Below, piece after piece: positions 3,048 through 58,230 of a stretch of DNA of 64,000 bases. The position numbers were made by a program, and so were the translations under genes. How positions within the stretch are numbered: the stretch's first letter is position 1; each line of letters begins with the position of its first letter. The notes under the pieces are model-generated. The model was given only the letters and a program-made list of their open reading frames with translations. It had not been told where the DNA came from and did no database searches. Origin of the DNA: Chiloscyllium plagiosum (lineage: Eukaryota); contig NC_057718.1 of assembly GCF_004010195.1 (NCBI RefSeq), positions 6,653,068 through 6,717,067 of the forward strand. The letters run 5' to 3'.

Positions 3048-6000
3048 CAACTCGCTTATCCTCCATAAACTATAACTCGCTTATCCTCCATAAACTAAAA
3101 CTCCATTATCCTCCATAAACTACAACTCGCTTATCCTCCATAAACTGCACCTCCCTTTTCCTCCATAAACTATAACTCGATAATCCTCCATAATCTACAA
3201 CTCGCTTATCCTCCATAAACTACAACCTCCTTAAACATCAAAAACTACAACTCGCTTTTCCTCCATAAACTCCAACTCACTTATCTTCCATAAACTACAA
3301 CTCCCTTATGCTCCATAAACTACAACTCCGTTATCCTCCATAAACTACAACCTCCTTAAACATCCAAAACTACAACTTGCTGATCCTCCATATACTAAAA
3401 CTCCCTTATTCTCCATAAACTACAACTCGCTTATCCTCCATAAACTACAACCTCCTTAAACATCAAAAAATACAACTCGCTTCTCCTCCATAAACTACAA
3501 CTCGCTTTTCCTCCATAAACTCCAACTCGCTTATCTTCCATAAACTACAACTCCCTTAACCTACATAAGCTACAACTCGCTTATCCACCATAAACTACAA
3601 TTCGCTTATCTCCATAAACTACAACTCACTAATCTCCATAAACTGCAACTCGCTTTTCCTCCATGAACTACAATTCGCTTATCTTCCATAAACTACAACT
3701 CCCTTATCTTCCATAAACTACAACTCCCTTATTCTCCATAAACTACAACTTGCTTCTCCTCCATAAACTCCAACTCGCTTTTCCTCCATAAACTCCAACT
3801 CGCTTATCTTCCATAAACTACAACTCCCTTATCCTCCATAAACTACAACTGCCTTAACCTACATAAGCTACAACTCACTTATCCACCATAAACTACAACT
3901 CGCTAATCTCCATAAACTACAACTCGCTTTTCCTCCATAAACTGCAACTCGCTTATCTTCCATAAGCTACAACTCGCTTATCCACCATAAACTACAACTC
4001 GCTTACCTCCAAAAACTACAACTCCCTCATCCTCCATAAACTGCAACTCGCTTTTCCTCCATAAACTACAACTTGCTTGTCCTCCATAAACTACAACTCG
4101 CTTATCTTCCATAAACTACAATTCGCTCATTCTCCATAAACTACAACTCCCTTATCCTTCATAAACTAAAACTCCCCTATCCTCTATAAACTACAACACC
4201 CTTATCCTCCATAAACTGCAACTCCCTGACTGTCCAAAAACTACAACTGACTTATCCTCCATAAACTGAAACTCGCTTATACTCCATAAACTACAACTCG
4301 CGGACACTCGATCAACTGCAACTCCCTTATCCTCCATAAACTACAAGTCTCTAATGTCCATAAACTACAACTCGCTTATCCTCCATAAACTACAACTCCG
4401 TTATCCTCCATAAACTACAACTCTCCACCTGCATAAACTACAACACCCTTATCCTCCATAAACTGCAACTCCCTTATCATCCATAAACTACAACTCCCTT
4501 TTCCTCCATAAACTATAACTCGATAATCCTCCATAATCTACAACTCGCTTATCCTCCATAAACTACAACCTCTTTAAACATCATAAACTACAACTCCCTT
4601 ATCCTCCATATGCTAAAACTCCCTTATTCTCCATAAAATACAACTCGCTTCTCCTCCATAAACTACAACTTGCTTTCCTGCATAAACTACAACTCGCTTA
4701 TCCTCCATTAACTTCAACTCGCTTATCCCCCATAAACTGCAACTCAATTATCCTCCAAAAACTACATCTCTCATCCTCCATAAACTACAACTCCCTTATC
4801 GTAGATAAACCACAACTCTCTTATCCTCAATAAACTGCAACTCGCTTTTCCACCATAAACTACAACTCGCATACCCTCCATAAACTACAACTCGTTTATC
4901 CTCCATAAACTACAACTCACTTCTCCTCCATAAACTACAACTCGCTTATCCTCCATAAACAACAACTCGCTTATCCTCCATAAACTGCAACTCGCTTTTC
5001 CCCCGTAAACTGCAACTCGTTTATCTTCCATAATCTACACCTCTATTATCCTCCATAAACTACAACTCGCTTATCCTCCATAAACTTCAACTCGCTTTTC
5101 CCCCGTAAACTGCAAGTTGTTTATCCTCCATAAACTGCAACTCGCTTACCCTCCATTAACTATAACTCGCATATCCCGCATAAACTGCAACTCCCTTATC
5201 CGCCATAAACTACAAAGCGCTTATCCTCCATACACTGCAATTTGGTTTTCCCAAATAAACCAATTCTCCCTATCCTCCATAAACTACAACTCCCTAATCC
5301 TCCATAAACAACAATTCACTTACCCTCCAGAAACTACAACTTGCTTCTCAACCATAAACTGCAACTTCCTTATCCTCGATAACCTACAACTCTCTAATCT
5401 TCCATAAACTGCAACTCACTTTTCCACCATAAACTACAACTCCGTTATCCTTCGTAAACTACAACTCCCTTATCTTCCATAAACTGCACCTCGCTTCTCT
5501 GCCATAAACTACAACTTACTTATCCCCCATAAACTGCAAGCCCGTCTCCTCCAAAAACTATAACACTCCACCTCCATAAACTACAACTCCCTTAACCTCC
5601 ATAAACTGCACCTCGCTTTTCCTCAATAAACTAAAACTCGCATTCCCTCCAAAAACTACAAATCCCTTATCCTCCATAAACTGCAACTCGCTTTTCCACT
5701 ATAACCTACAACTCCGTTATCTTTCGTAAACTACAACCCGCTTTATCCTCCATAAACTGCAAATCACTTCTCCGCCATAAACTACAACTCGCTTATCCCC
5801 CATAAACTGCAACCCCGTCTCCTCCAAAAACTGCAATTCTCCACCTCCATAAACTACAACTCGATAATCCTCCATAATCTACAACTCGCTTATCCTCCAT
5901 AAACTACAACCTCCTGAAACATCATAAACTACAACTCGCTTATCCTCCAGATACTAAAATTCCCTTATTCTCTACAAACTACAACCTCCTTATCCCCCAT

Positions 6001-14580: not shown

Positions 14581-14770
14581 CATCAGAAGTGTGTCAATAA
14601 CCTATTAAACCACCAAGCTGATTCACAGCAAAGATAATTTGCATCAGCCTTCATCATTAACAACAAATAATGGTTTACTTCAGCAAACGCATTCTTTAAT
14701 AAATTAAAAATATAAAGAAGATTACTTAACAATATTACACAATTTAAGCTGTAACCCTTTAAAATACCAT

Positions 14771-15185
14771 GCATGCATGCACACACACACACACGCACGC
14801 ATATATACGCGACCACATTTGCACAGGGAGAAAGTGAGGACTGCAGATGCTGGAGACCAGAGTTGAAAAATGTGGTGCTGGAAAAACACAGCAGGCCAAG
14901 CAGCATCCGAGGAGCAGGAAAATCGATGCTTCGGGCCCTTCCTGAAGAAGGGCTTATGCCCAAAACGTCAATTCTCCTGCTCTTCGGATGCTGTCTGGCC
15001 TGCTGTGTTTTTTCCAGCACCACATTTTTCAACACATATGCACACACATGTATGCACACATATGCACACACACACATATATAAACACACACACATATAAA
15101 CACACACGTGCACACACCACGTATGCACACACACACATATACACACCATACATGCACACATATACACACATACATACACACACAT
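14771..15185. repeat. Degenerate (CA)n/(TA)n microsatellite interrupted by a fold-back element
   Basis: CA-rich tracts at 14771-14825 and 15033-15185. Confidence 0.9.
14826..15033 (-). mobile_element. PLE family A fold-back mini-element
   Basis: Tail gggagaaagtgaggactgcagatgctggag on the left, then inverted arms (ttgaaaaatgtggtgctgg... / ...ccagcaccacatttttcaa). Confidence 0.85.
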
Positions 15186-15429: not shown

Positions 15430-15830
15430 ATCTTTCCTTTCGACCCTGCACAGTCAATGTGTAATTGAGTTCAGGGTTAATCCAGCCGTTCCCATGAGCG
15501 AGGGGAGCTGCTGCTGGTGATTTATGTCCTTGTTGACACTCTGGGCACTGCCCCACCAACGTGGCTATGTCTCCATCCAAACCTGACCACCAGATGTAAC
15601 ATCTCACTAACATCTTCACTTTGGAAACCCCTGGATAGCCTCCCCCCACCCCCCGAAAAGCTTTCAATCCTGGTTGTGTCGGCCTTTTGGTTTCCCCATC
15701 ACCACCAGCTGTTTCAGTTTTGCCAGGACCAGAACTTTCTGTTTCCAAAGTCTGATATTGTCAACTATGACTGGAAGTGTGTCCAGAAAATTTAATACCA
15801 TCATGGACTCTTCCAGGGTGTGCACCCTCC
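15430..15830 (-). mobile_element. Gypsy/Ty3 pol fragment (integrase zinc-binding region), degenerate
   Basis: YPGVSKVKMLVRCYIWWSGLDGDIATLVGQCPECQ followed by ...QLHIDCAG, matching the HPG..MK...R.YVWWP.LD...V..C..CQ / LHID.AGP motifs. Confidence 0.85.
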
Positions 15831-16029: not shown

Positions 16030-16549
16030 GTTTAGATCAGAGTGGTGCTGGAAAAGCACAGCCAGTAAGGCAGCATCCGAGGAGCAGGAAAATCGACATT
16101 TCGAGCAAAAGCCCTTCATCAGGCTTAGAGGCAGGGAGCCTCCGGGGTGGAGAGATAAATGGTGGGGTGGGGATGGGGGTGGTAGGTCAGAGAGGAGGGT
16201 GGAGCAGATAGGTGGAAAGGGAGATTGGCAGGTAGGACAGGTCATGGGGACAGTGCTGAGCTGGAAGGTTGGAGCTGGGGTAAGGTGGGGGATGGGGAAA
16301 TGACTCCCTGGGGTTGAAGTGTTCCGAGGTGGAAGATGAGGTGTTCTTCCTCCAGGTGTCTGGTGGTGAGGGTGCGGCAGAGTGGGAGGGGGAGTTGTAA
16401 TGTTGGGCCACGGGGTGGTGGGGTTGATTGGTGCGGGTGTCCCGGAGATGTTCCCTAAACCTCACTGCAAGGAAGCGTCCAGTCTCCCCAATGTAGAGGA
16501 GACCACATTGGGAGCAACGGATACAATAAATGACATTGGTTCCCTGAGA
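16030..16549 (-). mobile_element. PLE family A 3' part (GIY-YIG endonuclease and terminal repeat)
   Basis: NVIYCIRCSQCGLLYIGETGRFLAVRFREHL; minus-strand ctgatgaagggcttttgctcgaaatgtc near 16095-16122; possible TSD tgttc(a/cc)ggatatga at ~16016 and ~16550. Confidence 0.9.
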
Positions 16550-16564
16550 TGTTCCCGGATATGA

Positions 16565-16860
16565 CCTGAGTGAGGCTACACAATTGCCTTCACTCAAGTG
16601 ATGTTCCCCAAGCTCAGTCAGACTAGCAAGGGATGTCCGTTTCTATCAGAATATCCTGCGACTCATATGCTCCATTTGCTGGATTTTCCAATGACAAAGC
16701 CAGTTGTAGTGCCTGTTGGAAGTCCACGTGGGTTTCAGCCAGTAGGCACTTTTGTGAGGTTACATCATTAACCCCACATACCAACAGCCTCTCAGCATCT
16801 TATTAAGGATTAAACCAAAGTCACATTCCTCTGCCAGTTGCATTAACCTTGTCGGGGATT
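16565..16860 (-). mobile_element. Gypsy gag fragment (middle)
   Basis: RLMQLAEECDFGLILNKMLR / LVCGVNDVTSQKCLLAETHVDFQQALQLA resembles the gag motif LA..C.FG..L..MLRD.LV.G. Confidence 0.75.
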
Positions 16861-22856: not shown

Positions 22857-23094
22857 TACTCTGATTGGACACTCTATGGTGGCACGCAGAAGTCAGATCA
22901 CACAGCAAACTGCGTTCAGAAGCTAGAATGCACGCATTACCTGGAATAAACATTCCCAATCCACCCTGTTAAATGTGTTCTCCAGATCAAAGCATGAGAA
23001 GACAGACTGCTCCTCCTGGAATGACCTGTCTGGCCCCACATTAGATGGACATTATTGTGTGTTGCCCAGTCTTGGGACCATATAGGTGTGCGAT

Positions 23095-23255
23095 GAGAAA
23101 GTGAGGACTGCAGATGCTGGAGATCAGAGCTGAAAACGTGTTGCTGGAAAAGCGCAGCGTGTCAGGCAGCATCCAAGGAGCAGAAGAATCAACGTTTCGG
23201 GCATGAGCCTGCTGCTGCCTGACCTGCTGCGCTTTTCCAGCAACACATTTTCAGC
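23095..23255 (-). mobile_element. PLE family A fold-back mini-element, centre deleted
   Basis: Tail on the left (gagaaagtgaggactgcagatgctggagatcaga), arm gctgaaaacgtgttgctgg..., short right arm ending caacacattttcagc. Confidence 0.85.
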
Positions 23256-33036: not shown

Positions 33037-33236
33037 GAAGAAAACCAGAAATCGCTGGAGGAACTCAGCAGGTCTGGCAGCATCTGTGGACAGAAAGCAG
33101 AGTGTGCATTTTGGGTCCATTTCTGGAGAAGGATCACAGGGTCCCGAAATGTTAATTCTGCTTTGTCTTCACAGACTTGTTGGATTTCTCCAGCAATTTG
33201 TTCCAGATTTCCAGCATCCGCAATTCTTTGTTTCAT
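33037..33236 (+). mobile_element. PLE family B fold-back mini-element
   Basis: Inverted arms agaaatcgctggaggaactc...agaaagcagag / ttctgctttgtc...ttctccagcaattt with right-side tail ttccagcatccgca; degenerate ctggagaagg...cccgaaatgtta core. Confidence 0.7.
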
Positions 33237-38167: not shown

Positions 38168-38299
38168 ATTCCTGATGAAGGGCTTTTGCCTGAAACGTCG
38201 ATCTTCCTGCTCCTCAGAAGCTGTCTGACCTACTGTGCATTTCCAGCCCCACTTTAATCTCCAGCAAATGCAGTCCTCATTTTCACCTTCATCAGGAAT
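38168..38299 (+). mobile_element. PLE family A terminal repeat bounded by a 14-bp inverted repeat
   Basis: attcctgatgaagg at 38168-38181 and ccttcatcaggaat at 38286-38299. Confidence 0.8.
38172..38199 (+). ncRNA. Minimal hammerhead ribozyme motif (family A)
   Basis: CUGAUGA-A-GGGC-UUUU-GCCU-GAAA-CGUC; all core positions present. Confidence 0.75.
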
Positions 38300-38745: not shown

Positions 38746-38910
38746 CCAAGTCAATCCAGGTTATGTACTTGTAAAAGAAAGATGTATAAAAACATACATT
38801 AGCAGGACAAATATCTTACAGAAAGGGCTCAATAGACCAAATGACATGGTTGAGAATGTGTTGCTGGAAAAGCGCAGCAGGTCAGGCAGCATCCAAGGAA
38901 CAGGAGAATC

Positions 38911-38938
38911 GACGTTTCGGGCATAAGCCCTTCTTCAG
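38911..38938 (-). ncRNA. Minimal hammerhead ribozyme motif (left arm)
   Basis: CUGAAGA-A-GGGC-UUAU-GCCC-GAAA-CGUC, perfect stem II. Confidence 0.78.
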
Positions 38939-38946
38939 GAATCTTC

Positions 38947-38974
38947 CTGAAGAAGGGCTTATGTCCGAAACGTC
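38947..38974 (+). ncRNA. Minimal hammerhead ribozyme motif (right arm)
   Basis: CUGAAGA-A-GGGC-UUAU-GUCC-GAAA-CGUC, one G.U pair in stem II. Confidence 0.75.
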
Positions 38975-39403
38975 GATTCTCCTGTTCCTTGGATGCTGCC
39001 TGACCTGCTGCACTTCTCCAGCAACACATTCTCAGCTCTGATCTCCAGCATCTGCAATCCTCACTTTCTCCTCAAATGACATTGTTCCCCATGTTATAAT
39101 ATGGCTTGGCTTAGAACTTGTGACAACAATTGTTATAGAGATTGTGACTTTGGACACTATCTAAGGCCTGACTAATTTTCAGCACATAGACACAGTGTTA
39201 AGGAGACAAAGGTTTCCAACTGTATTTGACTCATTCTCCATTATACTTGAGTCTGCTGTTAATTGATGCAATGGGAGAAAATTATTGTTGAAACTCTTTA
39301 AGTGGGAATTTGTCACAGTCAGGTTCCTTGGGATTGCTTTTTATAATTGCACTTTGTGAGGAGTGCATTTACACAATGGCAAGTGTCTTTATTTCTCTTG
39401 CAA

Positions 39404-40085
39404 ATGAATTGAATTGAATTTATTGTCACGTGTACCGAGGCGCAGTGAAAAGCTTTGTCTTGCGAGCAATACAGGCAGATCACAGAGTTAAATAGCGTAG
39501 ATTAGTAAATAATAGGTAAACAGCAGCAAAAACAAAAACACAGGTACAGGCGAATGTTAAGAGTTTATGAGTCCATTCAGTATTCTAACAACAGTAGGGT
39601 AGAAACTATTGTGAAACCGGCTGGTGCGTGTGTTCAGGCTTCTGTACCTTCTCCCCGATGGTAGAGGTTGTAGATAAACATTGCCAGGGTGGGATGGATC
39701 TTTGAGAATGCTGGCGGCCTTTCCTTGACAGTGGGCCTGGTAGATGGATTCTATAGATGGGAGGTTGGTCTTTGTGATTTTCCAGGCCGGGTTCACCACT
39801 CTCTGGGACCATCTCTGATCTTGAATGGTACAGTTGCCATACCAGGTAGTGACACATCCAAGCAGAATGCTCTTGATGGCGCACCTATAAAAGTTGGCAA
39901 GGGTATTCGCCGTCATGCCAAATTTCCTCAGCTGCCTGAGGAAGAGGAGATGTTGTTGGGTCTTTGGAACCAGTGCATCCACATGAACAGTCCAAGAAAG
40001 CTTGTTGTGGATGACCACTCCCAGGAGCTTGACACTCTCCACTTGTTCCACCTCTGTGCTGTTAATGTGTAGGGGGGCATGAGTT
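39404..40085 (-). mobile_element. Rex1/Babar-type LINE 3' end
   Basis: 164-aa open frame VESVKLLGVVIHNKLSW...QQHLLFLRQLRKFG...NFYRCAIKSILLGCVTTWYGNC...LPSGRRYRS; tail cacgtgacaataaa(ttcaa)n. Confidence 0.88.
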
Positions 40086-40397
40086 CATTGGTTTTATCAA
40101 AGTTAATATATCAGTCCTGGAGCTGCCAACTCTTTCCATTGAAGTTAAAAGGTGGGGCGGCTGGGGTGAGGTTGTGAAAGGTACAGAAGGACCAACTAGT
40201 TGGGTGAGGTGAAGTTAAAGTGGCAGGCAGCTCATGAGGAAGATAAGGACTTGGATCGAGTAGATGGGTTGTTGGACCATAGAAAGCATACAATGAAATA
40301 GGAAACTATTCGGTTCATAGGCTACAAGCACTGTGTGAGTTAAGGTAACCATAGTGTGAGAGGAGTTAAAAAGATGACAAGTAGTGGGTTTATACTG

Positions 40398-40522
40398 ATG
40401 AGAATGTGAGGACTGCCAATGCTAGAGATCATAGTCAAAACGTGTGGCGCTGGAAAAGCACAGCAGATCAGACAGCATCCAAGGAGTCGGAGAGTCGACA
40501 TTTTGGGCATGAACTCTTCACC
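40398..40522 (-). mobile_element. PLE family A terminal repeat fragment
   Basis: gagaatgtgaggactgc...gctggaaaagcacagcagatcagacagcatcc...gtcgacattttgggcat. Confidence 0.78.
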
Positions 40523-40804
40523 ATATCTCAGGTAAGGGGCAAGATTGAGAAGGCATGGTGACCTCAGCCAGTGTGGGAACTGAGCTCATGCTGTTGGCAT
40601 CACTGCATTACAACCCAGCTGTCCAGGATAACCCAGCCTAGAAGCATTGTACAATTCTATGCACATCCTTTGCTTTCTCGTGTTGGTTCTGATATCAAAA
40701 TGCTTGCTTCTCCCTTAGTTTTGCTGTGGACAGAGTTCCTGTCTCAGAAACAATCCAGCAGCTGGTGTGAAGCTGAGCGATGCTGTGAGTGGCAACATTG
40801 TCAG

Positions 40805-41582: not shown

Positions 41583-41793
41583 AAGAAAACAAAACCAACA
41601 GATGCTGGAAATCAGAAACTGCTGGAGAAACTCTGCAGATCTGGCAGCATCTGTGGAGAGGAAGCAGCGTTAACGTTTTGGGTTCTTCAAAATCCCTGAA
41701 GAAGGATGACCAGGCTGGAATTGTTAATTCTGCTTTCTCTCTCCACAGTTGCTGCCAGTCCTGAGGAGTTTCTCCAACAAATTCTGATTTTTG
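41583..41793 (-). mobile_element. PLE family B fold-back mini-element
   Basis: Left tail cagatgctggaaatc; arms gctggagaaactc...ctggcagcatctgtggagag / ctctccacagttgctgccag...gagtttctccaac; ctgaaga core at 41696. Confidence 0.72.
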
Positions 41794-41995: not shown

Positions 41996-43290
41996 CGCAG
42001 TTACACCACTCCCCACCTCTTCCTCCACTACATTGATGACTGCATCAGCACTACCTCATGCTCCCAGGAGGAGGTTGAGCAGTTCATCAACTTCACCAAC
42101 ACATTCCACCCTGACCTAAAATTTACCTGGACTATCTGACACCTCCTTCCCCTTGCTGGACCTCTCCATCTCCATCAACGGTGACCGATTCAACGCTGAC
42201 ATCTTCCACAAACCCACTGACTCCCAGAGCTACCTGGATTACACCTCCTCCCATCTTTCCTCCTACAAAAATGCTATCCCTTATTCCCAATTCCTCCTCC
42301 TCCACCGCATCTGCTCCCAGGAGGAACAGTTCCACCACAGAACACACCAGGTGGCCTCCTTCTTTAAAGACTGCAATTTCCCCTCCCATGTGATTGAAGA
42401 TGCCCTTCAGTGCATCTCATCCATGTCCCGCACCTCTGCCCTCAAACCCCACTCCTCCAGCCACAACAAGGACAGAACACCCACTGTGACTACCTGTTTA
42501 GTTCCCCGCCCCCCTACCAAATCATCCTCCCCTCATGGCACCCTCCCCTGCCACCGCAGGAATTGCAAAACCTGCACCCACACCTCCTCCCTGACCTCCA
42601 TCCAAGGCCCCAAGGGAGCCTTCCACATCCATCAAAGTTTCACCTGCATTTCCATACGTCATTTACATTATCTGTTGCTCCAGATGCGGCCTCATCTACA
42701 TTAGGGAGACAGGATGCCACTTTCAGAGCGTTTTAGGGAACATCTCTGGAACACCCGCAACAATCAACCCCACCGCTCTGTGGCCAAAACACTTCAACTC
42801 CCCCTCCCACTCTGCCGAGGACTTGCAGGTCCTGGGCCTCCTCCACCACCGCTCCCTCACTACCCGACACCTAGAGGAAGAACGCCTCATCTTCTGCCTC
42901 TGGACTCTCCAACCACGTGGCATCAATGTGGATTTCCCTAGTTTCCTCATTTCCTGTTCCCCCACCTTACCCCAATTTTAACCTTCCAACTCAGCACCAT
43001 CCTCATGACCTGTCCCACCTGCCCATCTCCCTTCCCACCTGTCCGCTCCACCCTCCTCTCTGACCTATCACCTTTACTCCCACCTCCATCCACCTATTGC
43101 GCTCTCAGCTACCTTCCCCTGAGCCCCACCCCCTCCCATTTACCTCTCCACCCCCAAGGTTCCCAGCCTTATTCCTGATGAAGGACTTTTGCCTGAAACG
43201 TCGATTTTCCTGCTCCTCGGACGCTGCCTGGCCTGCTGTGCTTTTCCAGCACCCGACTCCTGACTCTAATCTCCAGCATCTGCAGTCCTA
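41996..43290 (+). mobile_element. 5'-truncated Penelope-like element, family A (Neptune-like)
   Basis: HLFLHYIDDC (RT catalytic motif), thumb KPTDSQSYLDYTSSH...IPYSQF, Cys linker PCHRRNCKTC, degenerate GIY-YIG (LIYIRET...RFREHL), terminal repeat with hammerhead and tail. Confidence 0.93.
43175..43202 (+). ncRNA. Hammerhead motif at the 3' end of the PLE
   Basis: CUGAUGA-A-GGAC-UUUU-GCCU-GAAA-CGUC; core intact, stem II weakened. Confidence 0.65.
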
Positions 43291-43978
43291 CTGAATTAGA
43301 TGATCAACCATGATCATATTGAATGGCAGAGCAGGCTCGAAGGGCCGAATGACCTACTCCTGCTGCTATTTTCTATGTTTCTATGACCACACTTCCAAAG
43401 TGAACCATCTGCTCTGAAGTGCTTTAGAGAAATCCAGTAATCGTGAAGGGCGCCGCGTGAATGCAAGATTTTCTTTATGTTGACAGGCAGAAGTGGACCA
43501 AATGCGATCCTTGCTTCTATGTTCCTCGGAGAGTTTCCAGTCAGAAAGCTCCCTTTCCCACGGTCCAGCTGTTGCACAATGGAAATGCAAACACAGCACA
43601 CAGACAGCTGAAACTTTGAGTGTATTTATTAACTGTACATTAGAACAGGAGAAATCCAATGTGGTTGCCTGAAATGCAACTTCAAATCCATTCACTATTT
43701 CCAAACAAACCCATTAAGAAAATTGCTGCTTCTTATTTATACCCAGTAAACCAGCATTCCAAGTGACCTCAGGTTGCTGGGTTACTAAGCCAATTGAACA
43801 GTTTATATTCATAACTGGTATAAGTCAGCATGGTGAGAGCTGGCATTTCCAAAACTCCTGCTGTCCAATTTCCTCTCAGATCTGCCAGAGAGTGACATGC
43901 ACTGGATTTGGAGGTTTGGCGGTGGGGCGGGGTCTTCAGGTTTACATTTTCGAAGGGAACAGGGCAGAGTCTCAGTGG

Positions 43979-44108
43979 AGGCGAAAGTGAGGATGGCAGA
44001 TGCTGGAGGTTGGAGTCGAGAGTGTGGTGCTGGAAAAGCACAGCAGGTCAGGCAGCATCCGAGGAGCAGGAGAGTTGACGTTTCAGGCATAAGCCCTTCA
44101 TCAGGAAT
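43979..44108 (-). mobile_element. PLE family A solo terminal repeat with tail
   Basis: gaaagtgaggatggcagatgctggag...gacgtttcaggcataagcccttcatcaggaat. Confidence 0.85.
44077..44104 (-). ncRNA. Minimal hammerhead ribozyme motif (family A)
   Basis: CUGAUGA-A-GGGC-UUAU-GCCU-GAAA-CGUC. Confidence 0.75.
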
Positions 44109-44179
44109 TTGTGCAATGTGGTCGAGGGAGAGATTTGGGACAAACACAGGATAAGACATTCAGGAGGCTTATCTCATAC

Positions 44180-44478: not shown

Positions 44479-44613
44479 AGCACTTAGAACAATACAGAGT
44501 AGGAAGAGGCCCTTCGACCCTCCATGTCTGTGCTGACCATGATGCCATTCTAAACTACTCCCATCTGCCTGCACATTGTCTGAATCGCTCTATCCCTTGC
44601 CTGTCCACGTGTC

Positions 44614-44840
44614 TGAAAAATGTGTTGCTAGAAAAGCGCAGCAGGTCAGGCAGCATCAAAGGAGCAGGAGAATCGATGTTTTGGGCGTAAGCCCTTCTTC
44701 AGGAATGAGCCCTCCTGAAGAAGGGCTTATGCCCGAAACGTCGATTCTTCTGCTCTTTTGATGCTGCCTGACCTGCTGCGCTTTTCCAGCAACACATTTT
44801 TCAGCTCTGATCTCCAGCATCTGCAGTCCTCACTTTCTCC
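44614..44840 (+). mobile_element. PLE family A fold-back mini-element with TSD
   Basis: 91-nt arms 44614-44704 and 44713-44803, 8-nt spacer, 37-nt tail, TSD ctgtccac(g/a)tgtct at 44601-44614 and 44841-44854. Confidence 0.92.
44715..44742 (+). ncRNA. Minimal hammerhead ribozyme motif (right arm)
   Basis: CUGAAGA-A-GGGC-UUAU-GCCC-GAAA-CGUC, perfect. Confidence 0.78.
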
Positions 44841-45864
44841 CTGTCCACATGTCTGTCTAAATGCCTTTTAATCATTGCTATTGTGTCTGCTTCTACCACC
44901 CCCTCTGGCAGCTCATTCCAGGCACCTACCACCTTCTATGTAAAAACACTTGGTCAAGTATCTCCTTTCGACTTTCCCCCTCTCACCTTAAACCTAAGCC
45001 CTCTCATTTACCATTTCTAACCTGGGGAAAAGACTCCGAGTTACTCCAAGCAAAGCCTAGCTAATGTTTTGAACAGCTGCAACAAAATGTTTATACTCAA
45101 TGCCCTGAGCGATGAAAGCAAGCATGCCATATGCCTTCAATACCATCTTGACCACTTGTGTTGCCATTTTCAAGGATGATAGACTTGTACCCCTCTGGAT
45201 AACAATGTGTCTAAGGGTCCTGCCATTTACAGTATACTTTCCCCTTACATTTGACCTTCCAAAATGCATCACCTCTTCTCCTTGGGAGCACCTTGCTACA
45301 TCCTTTACACATTTGTCAAGTAATGAGGTTAGTGTCACACAAGTTGGTGGTGTATTGCCAATTAACAGGAACTACAGCTTGTTAAACCCCTCACTGACAC
45401 TGTAGCTCTCCTCATTAATATACAGCTTCCAATCTTAAACACACTGAATAACATCGACATGGAGACTCCTTGACTTGGCAGTCAGAGCAGCTCACCACTG
45501 GCTATGAGGAATCTCCATGTTCCTCACCACACAACTGCAACTCAAAGTATCATCATTGGGCATTGGCCACACTTAACCCTTATTATGGGAATTGACATCC
45601 CATAATCACCATCTCCTCATGGACATCATGACAGCTCTCCAATCCACAGAGTGCTTAGGAAGTGTACCATACAAGCGCTGCATTGTATGGTACACCAGCA
45701 TCTCCCAGTGAAAGACAGCTGAAAGGGCACCGTGGGCACAGGGTTAGGGACTAGCTCACAGACTGGGTCAGGCTGTATCTCGGGGTTGCTCACTTACTCT
45801 CCTAATGCTCACTTACTTAGCACCTATCCACTTACTCACAATATCCCTGCCTCTGTAGGGAGGG

Positions 45865-58011: not shown

Positions 58012-58230
58012 TAAAACAGAAGAAACTCTCAGCAGGATCTGTCAATATCTCTAGAGAGAGAAACAGAGTTAACATCACAAATCTGAAATGAATCTTCAGG
58101 AGTCTCTTCAAGAATCATATCGGACTTGAAACATTATTCTGTTTCCTTCTGCTGCCCGACCTGCTGAGTTTCTCCAGCAATTTCTGCATTGATTTCTGAT
58201 TTCCAATATCCACAGTATTTTGCTTTTATT
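58012..58230 (+). mobile_element. PLE family B fold-back mini-element, degenerate
   Basis: agaaactctcagcagg...gaaacagag / ttctgtttc...cctgctgagtttctccagcaatttct, then a right-side tail. Confidence 0.62.

Follow-up and report, generated by a model that had tools for sequence, protein, structure and literature searches.

The window analysed here is a stretch of 64,000 nucleotides (nt) of the Chiloscyllium plagiosum genome (contig NC_057718.1, positions 6,653,068 to 6,717,067, forward strand). At window positions 38838-39086 it holds a short fold-back unit, in which two copies of one repeat stand head-to-head and each carries a hammerhead ribozyme motif. Does this unit belong to a family that copies itself, or is each such unit made anew when a larger element integrates? 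A first-pass annotation of the window had named both readings: a stereotyped, self-amplifying retro-family resembling miniature inverted-repeat transposable elements (MITEs), or repeated extreme 5' truncations of a Penelope-like element (PLE). The unit is probably a single insertion event of an abundant PLE that bears an endonuclease. Its content can be read with good confidence as a direct copy of the last 129 nt of the element, with a minimal hammerhead followed by a stretch that ends where reverse transcription starts; the first 91 of these nt are joined to it head-to-head in inverted orientation. It is the minimal and most truncated form of the published PLE architecture; it is an ordinary by-product of PLE integration and not a new kind of element. 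Derivation from a PLE, as claimed in the first-pass annotation, is borne out by longer copies of the repeat, which come after an open reading frame (ORF) of GIY-YIG type.

Structure of the fold-back unit

Two inverted arms of 91 nt each, complementary at 88 of 91 positions (97%), meet head-to-head at a 2-nt spacer; the repeat search returned the same arms and spacer as had been described before. Element positions are numbered from the first arm base (TTCCTGAAG...), which is position 1, to the end of the tail, which is position 129. The tail of 38 nt follows the right arm only, as had been claimed. The left arm has none, and its outer end lies at an internal, tail-less end point. A target-site duplication (TSD) with one mismatch, CAAATGACAT[G/T]GTT, flanks the unit; the first-pass annotation had the duplication and its mismatch right but gave 13 base pairs (bp), where the length is 14 nt. 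The parts of the unit are as follows.

38838-38851, no strand: left TSD, CAAATGACATGGTT; direct repeat of 14 nt, 93% identical to the right copy
38851-38941, minus strand: inverted tail-less arm, element positions 1-91; 96.7% identity to the right arm
38942-38943, no strand: 2-nt spacer TC; head-to-head junction
38944-39034, plus strand: direct arm, element positions 1-91; from the repeat comparison within the window
39035-39072, plus strand: 38-nt tail, positions 92-129, reaching the distal 3' end of the element
39073-39086, no strand: right TSD, CAAATGACATTGTT; direct repeat

Similarity to contigs of three other organisms stops at 39072/39073. Folding prediction gives a single stem of 91 bp for the RNA of 38851-39072 (-180.3 kcal/mol, z -23), in line with the long double-stranded RNA (dsRNA) hairpin expected earlier. 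A single arm plus tail has no notable predicted structure (-21 kcal/mol, z +1.2).

Abundance and diversity in the genome

Exact patterns were searched genome-wide, each with a reversed-pattern control. All controls gave 0, so the fold-back repeats are not due to chance. Exact sites number 49,529 for the tail 25-mer, 42,539 for arm positions 1-21 and 18,777 for the 21-mer that spans the body-to-arm junction. Head-to-head centres, defined by both arms reaching position 3 or less and a spacer of at most 16 nt, are found at 5,811 exact sites.

The diversity of these centres was read from the first 50 in contig order. One central base (GGAATCC or GGATTCC) is found in 12 of them, GGAATGATTCC or its complement in 7, and perfect GGAATTCC in 4. 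The remaining 27 are other centres, no two alike by reading, and many contain snippets of the adjoining arm. The TC centre of the 38838-39086 copy is absent from all 50. When the 248-nt unit was itself used to search the genome, 2,194 first-look candidates were returned and 40 were scored. The scored matches, 91-96% identical, lie at about 40 places, and nearly all comprise both arms together with the tail. Of 29 matches that were aligned, 17 share the TC centre of the query. This uniformity arises because the search used the 38838-39086 copy as query and so selected its look-alikes.

Body-to-arm junction 21-mers also occur in head-to-head pairs 48-150 nt apart, for example at 2142990/2143142, 2433902/2434038 and 12171430/12171478 (G000:C1). 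Fold-backs that turn inside the element body thus exist, and the continuum of junctions extends upstream of position 1. The contigs from three other organisms hold thousands of arm matches, which cover the repeat (38848-39089) and never the flanks; the repeat family is therefore not confined to the C. plagiosum genome. A-to-G differences in these contigs were considered as traces of editing and rejected, because they fall on polymorphic positions 42 and 46 and so represent subfamily variants.

Junctions and end points in sampled insertions

A tail-anchored sample of 30 loci (sampled loci of all sets are given L numbers here) includes one that is N-masked and two that are the ends of one complex locus; 27 insertions are usable. 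An inverted 5' segment abuts the direct copy in 16 of the 27, six are solo or 5'-truncated, and in five the copy extends into the body of the element. Every one of these 16 fold-backs has a junction of its own. The inner end of the direct arm ranges from about -1 to 89; that of the inverted arm lies at 1-10 in 14 of the 16, at 27 in one and at about -124, in the body, in one. The outer end of the inverted arm could be read in 15, and lies at 87-98 in 11 of these and at 39, 44, 56 and 125 in the others. Two loci have sequence in the inverted arm which is absent from the direct arm: 37 nt in L053 (inverted 5-94, direct 42-129) and 85 nt in L055 (inverted 4-87, direct 89-129). The 5' ends cluster at about -5 to +2 in nine of the 27 insertions, including solo copies with a TSD (L036). 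A splice acceptor at position 1, as in Drosophila virilis, was rejected as the source of this cluster: solo copies starting there have no common upstream sequence.

The second sample is centre-anchored and consists of 20 stretches of 401 nt. A tailed arm is paired with a tail-less arm in 18 of the 20; the outer end of the tail-less arm lies at 81-101, with a median of 94. Two stretches have two tails, without a detectable TSD, and none (0/20) lacks a tail altogether. If the two arms took their ends independently, the chance of a mixed pair would be at most one in two, and 18 or more mixed pairs would, by our arithmetic, have a probability of about 2 in 10,000. There are thus two alternative outer ends about 35 nt apart (at about 94 and 129), the internal one just after ...CAACACA.... 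A TSD is found in 52 of 60 fold-backs, with a reported length of 12-20 nt; lengths are slightly overstated, since the TSD finder tolerates one mismatch. At its end the TSD often has a few bases in common with the outer end of the tail-less arm.

Fold-backs with two tails were considered as ordinary insertions and set aside. L077 and L082 have no TSD; L013 has tails on both arms, and its flank on either side is itself a palindrome over 40 nt or more. L013 is an inverted duplication of an insertion with its flank, or an assembly artefact; two-tailed fold-backs in general may be inverted duplications or two separate events.

Comparison of the two arms

Left and right arms were compared in 60 fold-backs: 28 from the query-biased set, 14 tail-anchored, 16 centre-anchored and two from the window. 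Rows with less than 88% identity or with a gap of more than 45 nt were excluded. The minor allele at position 46 is present in both arms of 19 copies and in one arm of four; at position 17 the corresponding counts are 11 and three. Allele frequencies are the same in the tailed and tail-less arm classes, and no allele is arm-specific. Changes at CpG sites are nearly all in one arm only, with 0 or 1 site-sharing copy ("both") per site. Subfamily alleles in both arms, together with CpG decay in one, indicate that the arms were identical when each copy was made. Mutations confined to one arm are not inherited, which argues against end-to-end copying of a hairpin master. There is good reason, then, to regard the fold-backs as independent integration products, made anew each time from a single-arm template.

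These data bear on the two readings of the first-pass annotation. The unit is not stereotyped: spacers, arm lengths, centres, and inner and outer ends all vary in the unbiased samples. Repeated extreme 5' truncation is favoured, as each of the 16 sampled fold-backs has its own junction and the arms of a copy were identical at birth. The left-versus-right-arm check, which had been proposed with kinship of the two arms of a copy as the sign against a propagating family, was run as a comparison of alleles, and came out against such a family. The self-amplifying, MITE-like retro-family fares no better on the junctions, which form a continuum, nor on the subfamily alleles, which are symmetric and never specific to one arm.

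Origin of the fold-backs

Several published properties of PLEs bear on how such copies could be made. They are taken from Craig et al. (2021, PMC8557442), Arkhipova et al. (2013, PMC3846280) and Frangieh et al. (2024, PMC11167929). In a typical Penelope insert, two direct pseudo-long terminal repeats (pLTRs) have an inverted pLTR beside them, and one inverted pLTR bears a tail of 31 bp; palindromes occur at the head-to-head junction, and self-priming was proposed (PMC3846280). PLE tails are 30-40 bp long and often present at one end only (PMC8557442). The protein of an Anolis PLE cleaves and extends both target strands in vitro. Reverse transcription (RT) of this element starts at two adjacent internal sites by an AC-rich stem-loop, and the interval between them equals the tail; RNA 3' of the start site is required, hammerhead cleavage is dispensable, and the choice of start site is the same on both strands (PMC11167929).

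The following course of events is proposed. The PLE ribonucleoprotein would cut both target strands about 13-16 bp apart. One target strand would prime complementary DNA (cDNA) at the distal RT start, which would give the tailed arm. The tail-less arm would come from the other strand, which would prime at the neighbouring internal start, some 35 nt upstream. Both cDNAs would probably be templated by the same RNA, as the near-obligate pairing of tailed with tail-less arms and the identity of the arms suggest. They would run toward the 5' side, often stopping near element position 1, and a head-to-head join of their 3' ends would follow, with microhomology or a small number of filler nucleotides. 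The tailed/tail-less pairs (18/20) fit RT primed on both target strands from two adjacent starts, and do not prove it. The inverted-only sequence in L053 and L055 means that those junctions cannot come from a strand copying itself. By analogy with Anolis, fold-back copies are probably dead on arrival, because they end at the RT start and do not have the downstream RNA which the Anolis enzyme needs. The hammerheads and the hairpin are probably passengers of the integration process.

A more specific version may be put forward tentatively. The thousands of fold-backs could be a record of coupled double-strand target-primed reverse transcription (TPRT), in which one RNA is copied twice from two mutually exclusive RT starts. 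Were this so, it would explain the one-tailed pairs, arms that are identical at birth, and joining near the RNA 5' end at position 1. The origin of the PLE tail and of the inverted pLTRs could then be settled from genomic junction statistics, and the module of about 130 nt would be the minimal unit handled by the enzyme.

Several points weigh against priming on both strands or against the picture of independent PLE insertions more generally. In vitro there is no strand difference in start-site choice, so that the pairing of tailed with tail-less arms would need an added assumption, for example one RNA for both primers. Most junctions, with the inverted arm reaching 1-10 and the direct arm starting at or after this, also fit self-priming on an antisense template. 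Stops cluster near position 1; a transcription start at this point, with TCATTCC as a putative initiator-like (Inr-like) motif, would explain this but is a conjecture. Genome counts suggest that about four in ten position-1 arms run into the body, compared with only five of the 27 insertions in the sample. The samples are small, with 20-30 loci from the start of one contig. The minor allele at position 42, which looks diagnostic, is in both arms of eight copies and in one arm of 10. Finally, the Pfam scan of 51 window ORFs found no reverse-transcriptase domain, and the copies seen are all 5'-truncated; it is therefore by its endonuclease, its hammerhead and its architecture that the element is identified as a PLE.

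Three other routes have to be weighed against integration primed on both target strands. If the fold-back were a self-propagating family, a master hairpin RNA would be reverse transcribed whole, as a MITE-like non-autonomous retroelement of about 220 bp. The best 29 genome matches, which share arms and tail and mostly (17/29) the TC centre, seem to speak for this, as do the frequency of some centre classes and the recurrence of some centres (L023 and the window copy 44616-44839 share an 8-nt spacer). The tail-less ends also cluster at about 90-99, as a fixed RNA 5' end would give. However, the uniformity of the 29 is query bias, and in the unbiased samples junctions and arm lengths grade into one another. 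Within the one-base centre class, the position-1 arm is the tailed one in three copies and the tail-less one in four. Copying of a hairpin master would not give diagnostic alleles that are symmetric and never arm-specific, and inserted copies end at the RT start, without the downstream RNA that template recognition would need if the Anolis enzyme is a guide. A self-propagating family is thus largely refuted, and very improbable.

Self-priming, or snap-back, is rather unlikely as the general route and a live rival for part of the copies. Here an end near position 1 would fold back and copy itself, and the endonuclease would resolve the product asymmetrically, so that the tail is one-sided. Arkhipova et al. 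(PMC3846280) inferred this from palindromes at head-to-head junctions, and Craig et al. (PMC8557442) attributed the tail to endonuclease-mediated resolution. Arms identical at birth are expected under self-priming too. Spacers often hold short inverted snippets of the adjoining arm, and the solo copy L036 starts with 5 nt complementary to arm positions 12-16; an inverted arm reaching 1-10 (14/16) with a variable start of the direct arm is what the antisense-template version predicts. Yet a direct arm that extends further 5' than the inverted arm, as in L034, L035, L057 and the classical full-length element, is impossible by inverted-strand copying alone, simple snap-back of a sense-templated cDNA cannot yield L053 or L055, and both target strands are extended in vitro (PMC11167929). 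The remaining route treats the module of about 130 nt as a separately transcribed short retroelement, mobilised in trans, with an RNA that begins near position 1 and forms fold-backs when both strands are primed. The cluster of 5' ends (9/27), which includes L036 with its TSD, fits such an RNA. So do two solo copies in the window which start at position 1 (38169-38288 and 43979-44107), the great excess of arms over coding parts, and the 5,811 fold-backs in which both arms reach position 3 or less; a pLTR promoter has been proposed for PLEs (PMC11167929; PMC3846280). Against it, the Anolis enzyme needs RNA 3' of the RT start, a part that is missing from inserted copies, and 18,777 arms continue into the body. 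In one raw RNA run under the same species label, 0 of 8.3 million reads aligned, which carries no weight either way. A strong RT stop would produce the same pile-up at position 1, and so would full-length mRNAs on which RT begins at the ORF-proximal start region. A separate short retroelement is therefore improbable, and dual priming on both target strands remains the preferred account.

Hammerhead motifs

The first-pass annotation had reported a hammerhead core on each strand of the unit. The pattern CTGANGANGG-N(6-14)-CCGAAACGTC (CUGANGA, a short helix II and CCGAAACGUC) has three matches in the window and none in 100 shuffles. One match falls in each arm, as reported, and one in 44715-44742. 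The two in the unit are:

38911-38938, minus strand: minimal hammerhead core, inverted arm; pattern match
38947-38974, plus strand: minimal hammerhead core, direct arm; pattern match

The core of the inverted arm consists of CUGAAGA, a bulged A, a 4-bp helix II (GGGC/GCCC), GAAA, a palindromic ACGU and a GUC site; helix II of the direct arm has one G-U pair (GGGC/GUCC). The order in both arms, CUGAAGA-A-GGGC..G(C/U)CC-GAAA-CG-UC, is that of the minimal PLE hammerheads of Cervera and de la Pena (2014, PMC4209133). These are defined by the core boxes CUGANGA, GAAA and UH, an unpaired base between 9 and 10.1, a G10.1-C11.1 pair, and a palindromic ACGU which replaces helix III. Helix I of the D. 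virilis PLE hammerhead has 2 bp, and about 4-5 bp are expected in the minimal class; in Schistosoma, dual motifs lie on opposite strands 100-700 bp apart (PMC4209133). By hand pairing, helix I of the shark motif has only two contiguous pairs plus one, in the body context and the fold-back context alike. For the minimal PLE hammerheads in the literature, cleavage is poor or depends on protein (PMC4209133; PMC11167929). In a fold-back transcript, the 91-bp stem as modelled would sequester both hammerhead cores.

None of the hammerhead families of Rfam matches; the whole window was scanned at the gathering score, and 38800-39120 at E<=10. This is expected for a minimal motif without helix III and is not counted against the motif. 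At E<=10, the segment 38800-39120 matches only microRNA (miRNA)-precursor models, far under their cut-offs, because of its hairpin shape. Hammerhead cleavage was also considered as the cause of the hot spot at position 1 and rejected: the GUC site is at position 31/32, and no 5' ends pile up there.

In 38961-39041 (arm positions 18-98), and in the same part of other copies, an ATG in hammerhead loop II opens a short frame. Conservation of the peptide, MPETS..LL.GCC.TCCAFPA..., extends across diverged subfamilies (seen in translated 43809-44159 and 40340-40585, both minus strand). In the young copies examined, a TGA near position 96 ends the frame. The ATG in loop II resembles the Anolis PLE, whose ORF begins at stem II.

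Related copies and the coding parent element

About 20 copies or fragments of the arm-tail module are found in the window, with 72-100% identity. Among them are:

44616-44839, plus strand: second fold-back; 8-nt spacer (different centre); 16-nt TSD at 44600-44615 and 44840-44855
14827-15033, minus strand: third fold-back; junction within the hammerhead region of one arm; inside a CA-rich microsatellite
23092-23255, minus strand: fourth insertion of fold-back type; asymmetric junction, direct 13-127 and inverted 51-93
42595-43289, plus strand: coding PLE from a related subfamily, 3' part; GIY-YIG-like ORF 42595-42978, about 190 nt, then hammerhead arm and partial tail 43172-43289
16042-16642, minus strand: another coding PLE 3' part; GIY-YIG ORF 16190-16642, then tail-less arm 16123-16042

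The tail-less end was said to recur, and it does so near arm position 87-93 at about 44619, 15026, 23255 and 61726. The arm and tail had also been equated with the 3' end of the coding PLE. They do align with it, at 43172-43289, but with only 80.5% identity over 118 nt; the two belong to related subfamilies and are not one sequence.

On sequence grounds, the arm-tail module appears to be the 3' end of an endonuclease-bearing PLE. Four window copies come after a C-rich segment (at 16123, 43172, 48564 and 60165), and two of these segments follow an ORF with a GIY-YIG signature. ORF 16190-16642 (minus strand) matches PF01541 with E 2.2e-4 and 21.9 bits, just below the cut-off of 22.6. ORF 42595-42978 is homologous to it (BLASTP 2e-10), and its nearest Atlas clusters include one with GIY-YIG in 51% of members, which is a lead only; ORFs of 42120-42981 have no Pfam match even at E<=10. 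At locus L062, endonuclease-coding sequence lies about 185 nt upstream of an arm that is 92.6% identical to the 38838-39086 arm. No full-length element of the young subfamily is present among L061-L063 (8 kb each); they share about 250-330 nt including the upstream part, and are thus 5'-truncated.

Distant relatives of the module at 33054-33084, 41599-41651 and 58133-58180 share only the block ...GATGCTGCC(A/T)GACCTGCTG..., which is better conserved from subfamily to subfamily than any other part of the 3' module. This block may be a protein-binding or RT-start determinant. The microsatellite around the fold-back at 14827-15033 is CA/CACG-rich and spans 14740-15120; an insertion bias for microsatellites has been reported for PLEs with an N-terminal endonuclease, a different group (Craig et al. 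2021, PMC8557442). ORF 15431-15760 (minus strand) has an integrase zinc-binding domain (PF17921, E 4.8e-8) and is a fragment of a long terminal repeat (LTR)-type retroelement adjoining the PLE at 16042-16642. About 500 nt downstream of the fold-back, ORF 39560-40084 (minus strand) matches PF09004 (ALKBH8_N) with E 1.3e-8; PF09004 often matches the C-terminal part of reverse transcriptases of the LINE (long interspersed element) type. The window contains 1,041 N, and stretches of N beside the fold-backs in L021, L031, L047 and L058 may be assembly gaps.

Significance

For annotation, these hairpins should be masked as truncated PLE insertions, and neither called a new family of MITEs or short interspersed elements (SINEs) nor read as miRNA precursors. 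The junction statistics (18/20 mixed pairs, symmetric alleles and a stop hot spot near position 1) are in vivo data on the mechanism of PLE integration, on which earlier work was mostly done in vitro and on an element of a lizard. The near-perfect hairpins, at least 5,811 in number and each about 90 bp long, are potential sources of dsRNA and of palindrome instability.

Comparison with known systems

The background given in the first-pass annotation, namely that PLEs have an inverted terminal repeat, a short extra tail and minimal hammerheads, agrees with the literature (PMC4209133, PMC11167929, PMC8557442, PMC3846280). A paper on this shark PLE family, or on such pairing statistics, was not found in the literature searched, which is a thin basis. 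The minimal dimeric hammerheads of PMC4209133 agree with the shark motif in core boxes, unpaired base, G10.1-C11.1 pair and ACGU. The shark motif, a putative ribozyme, differs in having a helix I of about two contiguous pairs and no Rfam model match.

Metazoan non-LTR retrozymes are likewise short, non-coding PLE relatives that bear hammerheads. They (Cervera and de la Pena 2020, PMC7229834; Li et al. 2026, bioRxiv 10.64898/2026.07.22.740005) differ in forming head-to-tail tandem units, reportedly via circular RNA, whereas the shark unit is head-to-head and has a TSD. The tandem arrangement is not present at 38838-39086, where the units are inverted; this applies to the one locus, as tandem arrays were not searched for elsewhere in the genome. 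Nothing suggests that the shark fold-back itself serves as a template.

In the twin priming of L1 elements, a model reportedly due to Ostertag and Kazazian in 2001, the second target strand is said to prime internally on the RNA, and microhomology to join the two cDNAs. Exactly this topology is seen in L055 (inverted 4-87, direct 89-129). L1 reportedly inverts the upstream part without duplication, whereas most shark copies duplicate the same 90 nt both ways.

The Anolis Poseidon PLE (PMC11167929) shares with the shark element two 3' end points about 35 nt apart, the internal one by an AC-rich stretch, and its extension of both strands would be a direct route to head-to-head copies. It differs in that the lizard data are from in vitro work and have no strand difference, whereas shark fold-backs pair one end of each kind in 18 of 20.

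In architecture, the likeness is to canonical endonuclease-positive (EN+) PLEs (work of 2005 by Evgen'ev and Arkhipova and of 2006 by Arkhipova, as cited in PMC3846280 and PMC8557442). Shark copies have the same head-to-head inverted arrangement and one-sided tail (38 nt), a short TSD, 5'-junction microhomology, a repeat that bears a hammerhead and, in longer copies, an upstream GIY-YIG ORF. Unlike the canonical element, the shark unit has no ORF or direct pLTR pair between the inverted copies, and this form is very numerous, with 5,811 exact centres. The available parts of these papers describe the architecture, without the pairing statistics measured in the shark. Architecture and hammerhead are thus already published hallmarks of PLEs; the modest extra value of the shark copies is in their junction statistics.

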